Shown one piece after another: positions 37,320 to 41,425 of a DNA stretch of 64,000 bases. The notes under the pieces are model-generated. The model did no database searches and had not been told where the DNA came from. It saw nothing but the letters and a program-made list of their open reading frames with translations. The DNA is from Candidatus Uhrbacteria bacterium (GTDB taxonomy: Bacteria > Patescibacteriota > Patescibacteriia > UBA9934 > GWF2-40-263). The stretch covers positions 350,247-414,246 of the forward strand of contig JAHFIQ010000001.1 in NCBI GenBank assembly GCA_023246355.1, read 5' to 3'. Each line of letters begins with the position of its first letter. Within the stretch, counting starts at the first letter, position 1. Position numbers and translations under genes: made by a program.

Positions 37320-38456
37320 ATGCCTCCAAAAAAGGCTCAAGTGGACCTGTGGCCAGATGAGCTCAGGTCTGCTCTCTCAGGCATACATGTCGACGACAAT
37401 GGGATTCAACAGAGCTGGGATGCTGTACTTGATCGTCTCCCCACCTTTGAGGAGATCATGCAGGTGACGTTTGCTCCTGAAGGACGCGCCTTGCCGTATG
37501 CTTTTGCATTCATTGCTGAACGTCTGCGGCCCTTTGTTCAGCTCCCCGTGGAGCTGGTCTCACGCAGATCATGGGAGACGGAAGCGCACTCACGCAAGGG
37601 AACGTTTCGTGTCATCTTCAGGTCCAGAGGGGTAGAACTTGCAGCCCCCAGCCAGATCTTCGGAATTGACTGTCAGAAATGTGTCAGCCTTTTGAAGGCT
37701 GCCAGGAAGAGGACAGGTCAAAAAGAGATCCGCGATCCTGACACGGGCTGCACCATCGCAACGCTTGATGCAAGGCACAACACCTTGCAGGTGCATTTCT
37801 GTGAGGTGGCACATCCGACTGAGGATTGGGGTGAGCGCCATCGTGAGATTTTTGCGTCTCTGGTGTGGCGCGTCATTCCCCTCTTACCCGAACCTCTGCT
37901 CACGCCAGAGCTCTGGGTGCAGCAAAACAAGGCATCACGCCGCGAAGCCGTTGAGCGGGTGTACCGTGCCTATCGAGTGCAGGCAAAAACGAGTCAGGAG
38001 GGAGATCTAGATGAACTCACTCGGCTGACCACGTCCTTGGCGGAAGTCGGTGTTGTTTCCAACCTTCAAGCAGAGGTTGCTCAGCTGCAGATCACGGTCC
38101 TTGGACTCACATCGCTTGTGAAGAAGCAGGAAGAAAAAATCAGGTCGGAGCTTGAAGCGCTGTTGAAGCGTTCGGATGTTGCTTCAATTCATCTGTGGGG
38201 ATCAGTGCTCGTGTGTGCTGTGGTGAAACCAGATTCTGCGTGGACGATTGTCGTGAACCGGGCACAGATAGGGGATCCGGTTCGTTGGTACAAGCATGAA
38301 GGGAGTACGCGCCAGGCGTATGCCCCGTCCCAGTACCGAATGCTCATTCCTCTTGTTGAACTGTTGAGCAAGGGGGAGTGGGGCACGGTCATCACAAGCG
38401 CGATTGCCGCAATCAGCACATCCCGCCTTCAACCCATCCACCTGCAAGAGGAGTAG
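37320..38456 (+). CDS. Hypothetical protein, first gene of the Ubl-conjugation operon
   Basis: aggag RBS 8 nt before the ATG; GC3-rich; central Cys/His cluster (CQKC...C...HFCEVAH); coiled-coil-like stretch (LQAEVAQLQITVLGLTSLVKKQEEKIRSELEALLKR). Its stop lies 3 nt before the JAB gene start. Confidence 0.55.
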   Translation: MPPKKAQVDLWPDELRSALSGIHVDDNGIQQSWDAVLDRLPTFEEIMQVTFAPEGRALPYAFAFIAERLRPFVQLPVELVSRRSWETEAHSRKGTFRVIFRSRGVELAAPSQIFGIDCQKCVSLLKAARKRTGQKEIRDPDTGCTIATLDARHNTLQVHFCEVAHPTEDWGERHREIFASLVWRVIPLLPEPLLTPELWVQQNKASRREAVERVYRAYRVQAKTSQEGDLDELTRLTTSLAEVGVVSNLQAEVAQLQITVLGLTSLVKKQEEKIRSELEALLKRSDVASIHLWGSVLVCAVVKPDSAWTIVVNRAQIGDPVRWYKHEGSTRQAYAPSQYRMLIPLVELLSKGEWGTVITSAIAAISTSRLQPIHLQEE

Positions 38457-38458
38457 AC

Positions 38459-39193
38459 ATGGTCAAACCCCCCAGAGCACCCATTCCGCTGATGACCAGA
38501 GCTTCGCCATCCACAACAGTGCGCGTGCTCGAACTTCCGCCCACGGTCTACTTCGCCAATCGTGCGATGGAAGACATGCGCATTCTCGTAGCCCTTTGCC
38601 CCGAGGAAGTGGGATGGTTGGGAACGGCCAGAAGGGTCGGCCGAACGTTCTACGTGGATGAGATCTTCTTGCCCAAGCAGCATGCAGGTCCTGCGCATAC
38701 CACCATCACCACCGAGGGACTGAGTCAGCTCATGGATGAGCTCACCCGTGCAGGCCGCGCCAAGCTTTTGGACCGTATGTTTTTCTGGGGTCACTCCCAT
38801 GCCAACATGCCGGCCGATTTCTCGGGCCAAGACGACCTGCAGATGGCCAAGCTCTCGAGGCATTCCCCCTGGTTCATCCGGGCGGTCTTGAACAAGTACG
38901 GAGACATGAAGGTGGATGTGTTCATGCGCGAAGAGGGCATGGCCTACTTGAACGTGCCATGGGTGGTTCACGCCCCTGTTCCCAAACAGCGCCTTGCCTT
39001 TTGGCAGGAGCGTCTGGCTCTGCAAATGCAAAGCCCTCCCAGGCGCAAGCACGGCCAAAAAGGTCTTCCTGCGCACATGGTTGGCAGAGGTGAAGCCGAA
39101 CTGGATTCCCAAGAAGTGTCAGAGGGTCTCGATCCTCCAGATGAAGCGCAGTGGGAAGCTGCGCTCGAACGTCTGGGAAGGGGGGAACCATGA
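38459..39193 (+). CDS. JAB/MPN (JAMM) metalloprotease, deubiquitinase-like
   Basis: Upstream Glu (CPEEVGWLG), then HSHANMPADFSGQD, which exactly fits H-x-H-x7-S-x2-D. gaggag RBS before ATG 38459; its stop overlaps the E1 start (ATGA). Confidence 0.8.
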   Translation: MVKPPRAPIPLMTRASPSTTVRVLELPPTVYFANRAMEDMRILVALCPEEVGWLGTARRVGRTFYVDEIFLPKQHAGPAHTTITTEGLSQLMDELTRAGRAKLLDRMFFWGHSHANMPADFSGQDDLQMAKLSRHSPWFIRAVLNKYGDMKVDVFMREEGMAYLNVPWVVHAPVPKQRLAFWQERLALQMQSPPRRKHGQKGLPAHMVGRGEAELDSQEVSEGLDPPDEAQWEAALERLGRGEP

Positions 39194-39885
39194 TCAGCAT
39201 TGCTCGTCATCACACCGTGTTTGATCCCAGGACCTTTGAGGAGAATCGGGTTGACGTGATTGGTGCCGGTGCGCTAGGATCCCGGCTGACCTTGGAACTT
39301 GCCAGGCTCGGGATTCAGGAAATTCATGTCTGGGACTTCGACAAAGTTTCGGACGTGAATCTTGCCAACCAGGCCTATGCCAGGAAGGATGTGGGCATGC
39401 CAAAGGTTCAGGCTCTCGCTCGTTTGGTGCTGGAGCACACCGGTGGTCATGTTGTTGCCCATGAAGAGGCTTGCACGGGAGAATCAGAATTGGGAGAGGT
39501 CGTCTTTCTCATGACTGATTCCCTTGTCTCGCGCCGTGAGGTCTTTGCGGGAGCTCTCAGGTTCAACCTCGTAACCCGGCGCCTCATCGAGGCGCGTCTG
39601 GGAATCGATCAGGGTCGGGTGTATTCACTCGATCCCAACCAGAGTGCCGATGTTGACGCCTACGCGCCGACCTTGAACGGCATCGCCAAGTTGGCGGTCA
39701 ATCCGTGTGGCTCTCCGATTTCCATCGGCGCCACAGCCGGCATGGCCGTCGCTCTTGCTACCTGGATGTTCATCCGATGGTGGGGAAAGGAACAAGATCA
39801 GACATCGACAGATGAACTGGAGAACGAAGTGGTTTTCGCCCTGCACCCTGTGATGGTCATGGGGAGCAGTTTCAACCAAACGTGA
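39190..39885 (+). CDS. E1-like ThiF/MoeB-family adenylyltransferase
   Basis: VDVIGAGALGSRLTLELARLG nucleotide-binding loop, WDFDKVSDVNLANQ (the D-x-D...N-L-x-x-Q ThiF signature), MPKVQALARLVLE. 232 aa, the size of a stand-alone MoeB/ThiF. Confidence 0.85.
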   Translation: MISIARHHTVFDPRTFEENRVDVIGAGALGSRLTLELARLGIQEIHVWDFDKVSDVNLANQAYARKDVGMPKVQALARLVLEHTGGHVVAHEEACTGESELGEVVFLMTDSLVSRREVFAGALRFNLVTRRLIEARLGIDQGRVYSLDPNQSADVDAYAPTLNGIAKLAVNPCGSPISIGATAGMAVALATWMFIRWWGKEQDQTSTDELENEVVFALHPVMVMGSSFNQT

Positions 39886-39915: not shown

Positions 39916-40185
39916 ATGGCAGGCAAGGATAAGGCGGGAGCGAAGAAGGCAGAAGCGAAGAAGGCGGAAGGCGGCAAGATCAGCCTCCAGGTGTTCCCTG
40001 GCAGGCGTGTGCAAGTGGACATCGAAGAGGGCGTCCCCTTCACCCTGGCCAAGCTGCTGGAACAGGAGGGCTTGGATGCGGCGCAGACGACCGTCAAGGT
40101 CAACGGTGAGGATGTCGCCGATCTCGAGCGTGTGCTCGTAAGCGGCGACAGCGTCGTTCTTCTCGAGAACGTCGAGGGCGGCTAG
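39916..40185 (+). CDS. Ubiquitin-like beta-grasp protein (ThiS/MoaD-like) ending in Gly-Gly
   Basis: ...KISLQVFPGRRVQVDIEEGVPFTLAKLLEQ...VKVNGEDVADLERVLVSGDSVVLLENVEGG followed by a stop codon, so the GG is exposed. N-terminal Lys/Ala-rich tail MAGKDKAGAKKAEAKKAEGGK. aggag RBS before ATG 39916. Confidence 0.8.
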   Translation: MAGKDKAGAKKAEAKKAEGGKISLQVFPGRRVQVDIEEGVPFTLAKLLEQEGLDAAQTTVKVNGEDVADLERVLVSGDSVVLLENVEGG

Positions 40186-40258
40186 GTCGCAGGGAACGAA
40201 AAACGGCGGGGCGCTTGTGGACGATCCGCGAGCCCCCGTTTTTACTTGAGGGAGGGTG

Positions 40259-41392
40259 ATGGTCATGAAAATCACGTTTGTCGGAAAGACACGATGGGAA
40301 CGGGCAAGGGAGGAACTCACCTCTAACATCCGGGAACACTTGTTTCCGGTCGTCCATAAGGACGTGGTCGTACATTTCCCCATGGAGGAATCAGAGCCTC
40401 ACGGCATTGAGCCCATGGATGGATTGCTCGAGGCGTCAGGGGCATTTCACTTGTTTCTCTTCGGGAGGTTTCTTCCCGGGTCTCACATTCTGAGCTCTCA
40501 AAGGTGGGGTTCCTACCGTACTGTGCTTGACGGAACACCCGTTGGATTTCCCATCTTCGTGCATGGAAGCCAGACGCCGATCGCTGAGTGGATAGGGAAT
40601 GTTGTCTGCTTGCGACTTCGAATGCAATACAGTGACGACTCACCCTATTCCCTCTGGGGCGAATTCGTTCGCTCTACCGCACAGACTCTGAGGAGTGCAC
40701 AGGGAGCAGATCCATCGCCTGTGGAGGGAGTAGGTTCAATCGCTCAGGCGTTGATGCCTTCTTCTTGGGCAGAGGAATGCAAGAAATGGCAGGCTCAATT
40801 TGACAACAGAGAAGGGAGAAGGGCTGACGCACTTAAACTCTTCCATCGTGCGACCGAAGAGGCCGCGCGTTTCGCTGCTCGAGTGCGTGAACAAACGGAA
40901 CAGGCGTTCGATACAAGTGAGTTCCAGGCCGAACTCGATCGTCTACGGGCGCATCCACTTTTTGATGACGCGTACTTTGTCCGAAACGGAGATCCTTCCG
41001 ACACAGACATTAAGTCTCCCGCGTTTGTGGTGAGGACCAAGGCCGTCGTCGTGAAGGTCAAAGCGCTCAACAGCGACGCCATGGAAGAGCGCCTGATCGG
41101 ACGATTCGAGATTTCCATTCCTCTTGATCCAAACCATGATTGGGGGGACTGCGTGCATTTTTACAACCTCGATCGATTGGTCGCCAATCAGCATGGTCCG
41201 CACATTGATGCAGATGGCTGTCCCTGCTTTGGCACAGGAACGTCGACCGTCGATAGGCTCTATGGGGAGGGACGCATCGCAGAGCTCGTCAAGTTCTGTC
41301 TTCACTACCTCACGCGAGTCAACACGGACGATCAGTGGGGGGAGAATATCCACAAGTGGCCCTTGGTTCAGGAAGCTCATCCTTCAAGCTAA
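40259..41392 (+). CDS. Protein with C-terminal UBC/E2-like domain and ~230-aa N-terminal extension of unknown function
   Basis: C-terminal beta-strands (AFVVRTKAVVVKVKAL, LIGRFEISIP, CVHFYN) followed by NQHGPHIDADGCPCFGTG, which fits the UBC HP(N/H)(I/V)-x4-G-C active-site pattern; a helix follows (RIAELVKFCLHYL). gagggaggg RBS. Assigned from the motif alone. Confidence 0.5.
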   Translation: MVMKITFVGKTRWERAREELTSNIREHLFPVVHKDVVVHFPMEESEPHGIEPMDGLLEASGAFHLFLFGRFLPGSHILSSQRWGSYRTVLDGTPVGFPIFVHGSQTPIAEWIGNVVCLRLRMQYSDDSPYSLWGEFVRSTAQTLRSAQGADPSPVEGVGSIAQALMPSSWAEECKKWQAQFDNREGRRADALKLFHRATEEAARFAARVREQTEQAFDTSEFQAELDRLRAHPLFDDAYFVRNGDPSDTDIKSPAFVVRTKAVVVKVKALNSDAMEERLIGRFEISIPLDPNHDWGDCVHFYNLDRLVANQHGPHIDADGCPCFGTGTSTVDRLYGEGRIAELVKFCLHYLTRVNTDDQWGENIHKWPLVQEAHPSS

Positions 41393-41396
41393 CGCA

Positions 41397-41425
41397 CACG
41401 GTCCCAGCGGCCGTGTTTTCTTTTT
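41397..41425 (+). terminator. Intrinsic terminator closing the Ubl operon
   Basis: Stem cacggtc...gccgtg (7 bp including a G-U pair), loop ccagc, then ttttcttttt. Confidence 0.7.

Follow-up and report, generated by a model that had tools for sequence, protein, structure and literature searches.

In a 64,000-nucleotide stretch of the genome of a Candidatus Uhrbacteria bacterium (GenBank assembly GCA_023246355.1, contig JAHFIQ010000001.1, forward-strand positions 350,247 to 414,246; the whole stretch is referred to below as the window), we studied a gene whose product we call E2L. In our judgement, which is evenly balanced, E2L may be the E2 enzyme of a previously undescribed bacterial cassette for the conjugation of a ubiquitin-like protein (Ubl), and would combine an N-terminal domain (the N-domain), a coiled-coil region, and a catalytic UBC-like domain. 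The cassette consists of five genes coding, in this order, for OrfA (~380 amino acids, aa), a JAB/JAMM peptidase (~240 aa), a ThiF-type E1 (~230 aa), a ThiS-like Ubl (~90 aa), and E2L. An initial annotation of the DNA had called the last product E2-like, a description that is supported by profile alignments, by weak matches to E2s of the PDB, and by the E1, Ubl, and JAMM genes of the operon, but not by the E2 models of Pfam.

E2L Is the Conserved Last Gene of the Cassette

The open reading frame (ORF) of E2L lies on the + strand, as do all window features described here, and runs for 378 codons from GTG 40256 to position 41392. The initial annotation had placed its start at ATG 40259. The ORF is real and this codon is in frame, but the start is most likely ATG 40265, because a Shine-Dalgarno-like GGGAGGG, read directly from the sequence, is found 8 nt upstream (40250–40256), and because the three orthologues of E2L share the corresponding N-terminus (MK[IV]TFVG or MEVTFVG). 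All E2L residue numbers below refer to the 375-aa product of ATG 40265 (40265–41392, stop codon included), whose predicted layout, in which an N-domain and a helical/coiled-coil region precede a divergent UBC-like domain, is based on the ORF, its ribosome-binding site, the orthologues, and an AlphaFold2 (AF2) model. The orthologues, which come from Candidatus Uhrbacteria or metagenomic sequences, are 68, 53, and 46% identical to E2L. The order of the five cassette genes, followed by ruvC, was the same in four independent Uhrbacteria contigs. Thus, given the orthologues and the synteny, E2L is a real, conserved gene.

Word-indexed searches for homologues were insensitive (4, 7, and 0 matches), and an exhaustive profile search was needed. 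Among 1.84 billion representatives, it returned 695 proteins at E ≤ 1e-3, and at 50% identity the family forms 695 clusters or more. The part shared by these proteins is their last ~100–160 residues.

The C-Terminal Domain Aligns with E2 Enzymes

A conserved domain at residues ~217–372 (40913–41380) agrees with the initial annotation, which had located the UBC-like part in the last ~150 residues and had identified its active site by the motif HPHI-x4-GC. A UBC-like site is indeed predicted there, but the sequence reads HGPHIDADGCPCFGTG, and the cysteine that had been named, Cys319 (41219–41221, the Cys of “GC”), is Trp in all three orthologues, whereas Cys321 (41225–41227, within PCFG) never varies among the three orthologues and 46 distant relatives. 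Across these 46 diverse family sequences, Gly279, His313 (41201–41203), Gly318, and Cys321 were invariant, while Asp356 (41330–41332), Asn353, and Pro366 were nearly so. The active-site motif of the 46 sequences is PH[VI]-x3-G-x-[PA]-C, and the family signature can be written as hG+F+I.I....F.NL.R.V...APHV...G.[PA]CLGN...L......A....I.FLESVN..D.WG..I..WP.

The invariant residues were aligned with catalytic positions of classical E2s. A 44-member family profile matched UBE2L3 in hhalign with a probability of 78% and a set of five human E2s with a probability of 79.3% (E 1.5e-5, 115 columns). The latter alignment spans helix α1, four strands, the active-site loop, and α2, and places G311-P312-H313 over H75-P76-N77 (the HPN motif of UBE2D2), C321 over C85, N353 over N114, and D356 over D117. 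In E2 enzymes, N77 is the oxyanion/structural Asn, C85 the thioester Cys, and D117 the lysine-activating Asp. Cys321 is therefore the predicted thioester Cys of E2L. With the UBC/E2 superfamily as a whole, E2L shares the motif [H/G]-P-H-[VI]-x3-G-x-[PA]-C-[LF], the predicted order α1, β meander, loop, α2, and a “xxVNxxD” segment aligned with “LLxxPNxDD”; it differs in having His for the HPN Asn and, in the model, a longer β2–β3 hairpin and shortened C-terminal helices.

When PDB sequences were searched with a profile, E2 L3 and E2 A were the sole enzymes among the weak matches (E 0.6–1.4), the other weak matches being designed or coiled-coil proteins. Matches to DARPins (E down to 2e-5) were rejected as a coincidence, since the family segment FLESVNxxDxWG resembles the ankyrin sequence LLxxGADVNAxDxxG; in the window, this ankyrin-mimicking segment is found at 41303–41344. 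Direct searches of Pfam, NCBIfam, PADLOC, and PDB sequences with E2L came back empty. The Pfam E2 models (UQ_con and Prok-E2_A to Prok-E2_E) did not match E2L at E ≤ 1, and no Pfam family was found in ten, and later 46, family members scanned.

An AF2 model built on 46 sequences had a mean predicted local distance difference test score (pLDDT) of 86.6, while an earlier run on four sequences had reached only 50. In the UBC-like domain, pLDDT was mostly 93–97, with a block mean of 66 in the loop at ~241–250. The modelled elements are a helix at 217–228, a four-stranded β meander with a long β2–β3 hairpin, the loop bearing H313 and C321, and, after Cys321, helices at 323–334, 338–349, and 359–364, an order that is compatible with a UBC domain. 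A Foldseek search of the PDB with the whole E2L model found no E2s and returned insignificant matches only, such as class I glutamine amidotransferases; against BFVD, the matches were of high probability and all to unnamed phage proteins. Taken together, the profile relatives, the hhalign alignments, the weak PDB matches, and the order of modelled elements support a C-terminal domain that behaves as a very divergent UBC-like E2.

The N-Terminal Region Appears to Be a Standard Module of the Family

The initial annotation had described the region ahead of the UBC-like domain as a long fused extension matching nothing recognisable. The second half of this description stands: residues 1–216 had no match in Pfam, NCBIfam, PADLOC, PHROG, or PDB sequences. 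The region is not idiosyncratic, however. Iterative searches with hidden Markov models (HMMs), alignments, and the AF2 model delimit an unnamed α/β domain, the N-domain, at residues 1–125 (40265–40639). An HMM of residues 1–135 from the four orthologues found the upstream region of distant relatives already in the first round and, after iteration, yielded a consensus of ~100 residues, L.P.V...I.VH..dG.FHIFLWS.P..hWG..F.PSG.G.PI.D..g.VAELvgNNLYIH. At a strict threshold, one, two, three, or four tandem copies were present in 48, 21, 3, and 1 of 155 representatives, respectively; E2L has one. The segment made up of the last N-domain, the helices, and the E2-like domain is 364 aa long in the median and runs collinear with E2L. 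An N-domain profile had no relative in Pfam, PDB sequences, or PHROGs. The N-domain was also considered as a degenerate UBC domain, a reading that was rejected because hhalign gave less than 1% probability both with E2s and with the C-terminal domain of the family.

The N-domain is followed by a helical linker at residues 126–216 (40640–40912), the least conserved region of the protein, for which AF2 predicts helices at 129–147, 152–163, and 166–214. Analysis of alignment periodicity in the last of these (40760–40906) revealed a family-conserved a/d hydrophobic pattern that spans seven heptads with 3-4-3-4 spacing; its power peaks at 3.5 residues, as in a classical coiled coil. The N-terminal region is modelled as folded rather than disordered, and no common known domain was found in it: pLDDT was 85–97 at residues 1–40, at residues 95–125, and in the long helix, and was poor only in the loop at ~70–92.

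Mean pairwise identity among the orthologues was 66% in the E2 domain, 55% in the N-domain, and 34% in the linker; the family-wide values were 37, 25, and 15%, respectively. The N-domain is well conserved between members from the candidate phyla radiation (CPR), from Melainabacteria, and from phage-like contigs. The earlier suggestion that the region recognises targets fits poorly with these values, since an N-domain so much better conserved than the linker is unlike a fast-evolving recogniser. From the sequence comparisons, the “N-terminal extension” is best described as a standard, presumably ancestral, non-catalytic module of a large family and not as a one-off add-on.

OrfA Is a Candidate Pseudo-E2 Partner of E2L

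The gene for OrfA (378 aa, 37320–38456), whose product matched nothing in the databases, opens the cassette and is conserved in loci L001 to L004. The initial annotation had named its product, the lead 378-aa protein, as one with which E2L might be docked; OrfA appears to be built from the same module as E2L and not to be an unrelated partner. BLASTP between OrfA and E2L found nothing, and the paralogy is visible only with profiles. When a profile of OrfA and two orthologues was aligned with the E2L family, hhalign gave a probability of 98.3% (E 1.4e-14, 290 columns), with OrfA residues 65–369 set against E2L residues 23–343. When the N-domain HMM was run against every ORF in the six frames of the window, only E2L (1.2e-16) and OrfA (2.7e-5) matched. 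The predicted layout of OrfA comprises an N-domain (residues ~64–150), a heptad helix (~240–285), and a degenerate UBC-like domain, in which APSxYRMLIP stands where the family has APHV..G.PCLG, so that neither the His nor the Cys is present. Because it has the same architecture without these two residues, we interpret OrfA as a catalytically dead paralogue of E2L, a pseudo-E2 of the UEV kind.

Similar pairs were found elsewhere. In loci of Obscuribacterales/Melainabacteria, each canonical E2L gene is followed by an E2L-like gene of 285–440 aa; in the degenerate partners from Obscuribacterales, the His is replaced with R, T, Y, or Q, and the CLGN motif is gone. In five representatives, a canonical and then a degenerate E2L domain are fused in a single chain (for example, at L044:7001-9145). 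The changes in the fused degenerate domains are C to V (P0030), H to Q and C to F (P0094), H to L and C to L (P0039), H to N (P0006), and LGN to FAS (P0036). Because of these single-chain fusions, we consider that E2 and pseudo-E2 probably form a functional, and probably a physical, pair.

Some Obscuribacterales operons (for example, L005:1972-9268) contain two successive pairs of E2L and pseudo-E2 genes. The E2Ls of such double-pair operons have hydrophobic, transmembrane (TM)-like segments at the N-terminus and two N-domains, which suggests that they are membrane-anchored and have diversified roles.

The Other Genes of the Cassette

The gene downstream of orfA codes for a 244-aa JAMM/JAB metallopeptidase (38459–39193). 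Its Prok-JAB match (7e-4) is below the Pfam cut-off; the JAMM motif, E...HSHx7SxxD, is intact and is conserved in 29 homologues. The stop codon of this gene overlaps, in ATGA, the start of the gene for the E1 (39190–39885), a minimal ThiF-type protein of 231 aa with a single adenylation domain that matches ThiF (2e-16) and Cap2 E1 models. The E1 has a nucleotide loop, GAGALGS, and a cysteine, Cys173, that is invariant in 26 of 26 complete homologues. It is similar, at ~1e-60, to the E1s of Melainabacteria loci, and 26 complete E1s from loci with N-domains align with it end to end. Where an E1 was called or read at a locus with N-domains, it is 222–231 aa long and has no E2-recruiting domain. 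At the one N-domain-less locus with a recognisable E1 (L044:10953-12047), the E1 has 364 aa, with an extra partial adenylation-like domain at the N-terminus. A 63-aa ORF located ahead of this E1 also matches the E1 start and is possibly a frameshift remnant.

The Ubl is a ThiS-like protein (match at 1e-4) of ~89 aa when read from ATG 39916 (39916–40185; the ORF opens at GTG 39886). Its C-terminus in Uhrbacteria is LLENVEGG, directly followed by the stop codon. In relatives, the Ubl ends in [RK]GN plus anything from no residue to many, which implies that it is processed by JAB there.

Ahead of the β-grasp core, the Ubls of Uhrbacteria have a conserved N-terminal tail that is rich in Lys and of low complexity, for example MAGKDKAGAKKAEAKKAEGGK; such tails are found at 39916–39980 of the window, L001:7659-7922, and L004:2851-3129. 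The lysines of the tail could be acceptor sites for Ubl–Ubl chains. Other forms of the Ubl were seen in Saccharibacteria, where it has two β-grasp domains and a helical tail, and in some Obscuribacterales, where it has long N-terminal extensions (L032:9784-10398, L021:6010-6984, and L005:5443-6315); in these variants, the first β-grasp domain ends in [RK]GN and not in GG.

Two terminator-like hairpins with T-runs, both recognised by consensus match only, are located between the Ubl and E2L genes (40213–40233) and 4 nt past the E2L stop codon, ahead of ruvC (41396–41416). The total number of terminator-like hairpins was not above that in shuffled sequences. The first hairpin could attenuate the expression of E2L relative to that of the Ubl.

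Proposed Mechanism and Alternative Explanations

We propose that the Ubl, with its ready-made Gly-Gly end, would be adenylated by the minimal ThiF-type E1, transferred onto E1 Cys173, and then handed to Cys321 of E2L. With His313 at the position of the HPN Asn and Asp356 at that of Asp117 of classical E2s, E2L would pass the Ubl to an amine of the target, and the JAMM peptidase would undo the attachment. The coiled coil may dimerise E2L, most likely in a Ubc13–Uev-like heterodimer with OrfA, and the N-domain may be a protein-binding module docking a constant component of the cassette, the E1 or the Ubl. The sequence comparisons show the layout of E2L, its family, the paralogy of OrfA, the invariant residues, the intact motifs of the E1, JAB, and Ubl, and the recurrence of canonical and degenerate E2 pairs; the thioester chemistry, the formation of a heterodimer, and the protein bound by the N-domain are features that we infer. 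A constant partner of the N-domain seems, tentatively, more likely than a variable target, because hosts that are very distant from each other share a strongly conserved N-domain, which is also present in the presumably dead OrfA, and because the E1s of N-domain loci are bare proteins without a domain that would recruit an E2.

Several observations weigh against this scheme. None of the 46 family members matched the Pfam E2 models even at E ≤ 10. The correlation between E1 length and the presence of N-domains depends on one or two N-domain-less loci. Up to four tandem N-domains occur in one chain, for which the docking of an E1 provides no evident need, and several polar residues conserved in the family have been lost from the Uhrbacteria N-domain. 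Finally, about half of the family bears other N-terminal regions, a modular variability that is expected of a specificity module.

The initial annotation had proposed that the N-terminal region is a fused, E3-like substrate receptor that chooses the target of the Ubl, such as, by analogy with Bil, a structural protein of a phage. There is no separate E3 in the operon, Bil E2s have been proposed to recognise their targets directly (PMC11601596), and the N-termini of the family vary (one to four N-domains, TM anchors, and other sequences). Tandem N-domains would, moreover, offer avidity for a polymeric target, and the relatives of the cassette on phage-like contigs point to some part in phage–host biology. 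Yet only one region of the protein is more constrained than the N-domain, which is well conserved across CPR, Melainabacteria, and phage-like members, and the dead paralogue bears it too. Neither does the location favour a receptor for phage proteins: the locus lies between rpoC and ruvC, its ruvC side is syntenic in the four Uhrbacteria contigs, nothing in the window points to a defence island, and only the E1 was recognised by PADLOC. We consider a substrate receptor the main alternative, possible though rather unlikely. Decidedly less probable is that the C-terminal domain is another kind of Cys/His/Asp enzyme (a peptidase, a deamidase, or a transglutaminase-like protein) acting on the Ubl or its conjugates. 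The invariance of His, Cys, and Asp, and the failure of both Pfam and Foldseek to find an E2, would be as expected of such an enzyme, but the order H-x7-C...D and the surrounding motif fit a PROSITE-like pattern of the UBC active site, and hhalign puts all three residues on catalytic positions of E2s, with α1, β1–4, and α2 aligned as well. The cassette already contains a JAMM peptidase and would otherwise have no E2, and Cys-less paralogues are kept, as in the case of UEV proteins.

The cassette might also be a ThiS/ThiF pathway for sulfur transfer or biosynthesis that conjugates no proteins, with JAB trimming of the carrier as in CysO/Mec and with E2L as an accessory protein. In database searches, the E1 and the Ubl indeed matched ThiF and ThiS/MoaD models best, and the E1 is minimal; it matches Cap2 E1 models as well, however, and the cassette contains no gene for a rhodanese, a sulfurtransferase, or cofactor biosynthesis. 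Its conserved partners are instead an E2-like protein whose Cys is invariant and a pseudo-E2, and its Ubls, with GG or G-N ends, extra β-grasp copies, and tails, are like the Ubls of bacterial conjugation systems. We regard a sulfur-carrier pathway as very improbable. The role of E2L as an E2 enzyme remains the reading that we prefer.

Comparison with Known Systems

Bil (type 6d, consisting of the Ubl BilA, the E2 BilB, the JAB BilC, and the E1 BilD) resembles the cassette in having these four functions encoded by separate genes of one operon without an E3, and in an E2 that is presumed to handle the target directly. The Bil E1 has the architecture IAD-AAD-CYS (PMC11601596), while the E1 of the cassette is one 231-aa adenylation domain. 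The E2s of type 6d are without a His at the HPN position and have a conserved His C-terminal to the Cys (PMC1779556); E2L, in contrast, has His313 at the HPN position, and the lists of invariant columns contain no His after Cys321. Further differences are the N-domain and coiled coil of E2L, its pseudo-E2 partner, and the results of model searches, in which E2L and OrfA were unmatched in PADLOC and NCBIfam and the E1 matched only generic ThiF and Cap2-type models. The window cassette is also found in a housekeeping setting, between rpoC and ruvC, and not in a defence island. The link to Bil that had been drawn in the initial annotation is not borne out by this setting and by the E1 architecture, and nothing ties the N-terminal extension to phage structural proteins.

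The pairing of E2L and OrfA recalls Ubc13 and Mms2/Uev1a, where an active E2 is matched by a Cys-less UEV; in the present family, a canonical E2 domain and a paralogous domain without the catalytic Cys and His are co-encoded and sometimes form one chain. The likeness is one of shared logic, not of orthology, and pairing in the cassette would take place through a predicted coiled coil.

Bub (6E/DUF6527) operons also combine a bacterial Ubl, an E1, and an unusual E2, have a JAB in type I, and have diverse Ubls. They differ in the E2 Ser, the E1 Tyr, the oxyester intermediates, and a DUF6527 serine protease that is always present. Identity of the cassette with Bub was rejected, as both the E1 and E2L have an invariant Cys and no DUF6527 (PF20137) was found among the five products. 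Type II CBASS has Cap2 and Cap3, and the cassette resembles it in the presence of a JAB and in its E1, whose best match in a defence database is a Cap2 E1 (1.9e-13). Identity with type II CBASS was rejected too: Cap2 is an E2–E1 fusion that conjugates a CD-NTase and is encoded beside it and an effector, whereas the genes of the cassette are separate, there is no CD-NTase, and the Ubl is free.

Distribution and Genomic Context of the Family

The hosts of the family are Uhrbacteria, Saccharibacteria, other Patescibacteria, and many metagenome-assembled genomes of Obscuribacterales/Melainabacteria; other members come from metagenomic contigs. No model of the E2L family, of the N-domain, or of the pairing was found in Pfam 2025, NCBIfam June 2026, PADLOC 2023, or PHROGs v4, and no description of the three was found in the literature searched. 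PADLOC recognised the E1 alone of the cassette products, as Cap2-like.

In Obscuribacterales, a gene for a ClpC/ClpB-like double-AAA+ protein directly follows the E1 gene in 20 of the 21 loci with enough sequence (among loci L005 to L040; for example, L019:11752-14079, with AAA_2 at 5e-62 and ClpB_D2-small). The arrangement suggests that Ubl tagging is coupled to an unfoldase in Obscuribacterales/Melainabacteria. No ClpC-like gene is present in the window, and the Clp link is therefore not applicable to the Uhrbacteria locus.

Two phage-like contigs carry relatives of the cassette. The first (L043, 2677–6503) codes for an E1, a small Ubl, an E2L, and a JAB, next to a UvsX-like recombinase, phrog_1499, a helicase, SSB, and UDG. 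The second (L041, 9001–13187) codes for an E2L, a 104-aa ORF, and a JAB-containing protein, next to a PhuZ-like tubulin and a minor-head-like protein; no E1 was detected there. A scan of viral contigs with the Obscuribacterales subfamily found nothing.

Protein conjugation has been shown for the CBASS Cap2, Bil, and Bub operons, the first two of which act in phage defence, and the reach of this machinery is now being mapped. A large family that curated models do not cover would join such bacterial Ubl-conjugation operons. It would add a combination of a minimal E1, an E2 that mirrors N77/C85/D117, E2/pseudo-E2 pairing, and a new, repeatable N-domain. The settings in which it is found are reduced CPR genomes, beside housekeeping genes; Melainabacteria, beside a Clp-type unfoldase; and phage-like contigs. 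A broader, speculative, and on balance unlikely extension is that CPR, Melainabacteria, and some phages share an undescribed Ubl pathway, in which an N-domain-bearing, coiled-coil E2/pseudo-E2 pair attaches a ThiS-like Ubl without an E3, possibly as chains on the Lys-rich tail, and in which the tag is read by the ClpC-like unfoldase in Melainabacteria. If true, this would be a bacterial route from a ubiquitin-like tag to an unfoldase that is independent of Pup. If conjugation is confirmed, the family would provide a tractable system for studying how an E2 is brought to an E1 lacking a recruiting domain, and for asking whether tagging is coupled to AAA+ unfoldases outside Actinobacteria.

In one Uhrbacteria contig (L004:6997-8364), two genes for LAGLIDADG homing endonucleases lie downstream of the cassette, at a distance of a few kb.

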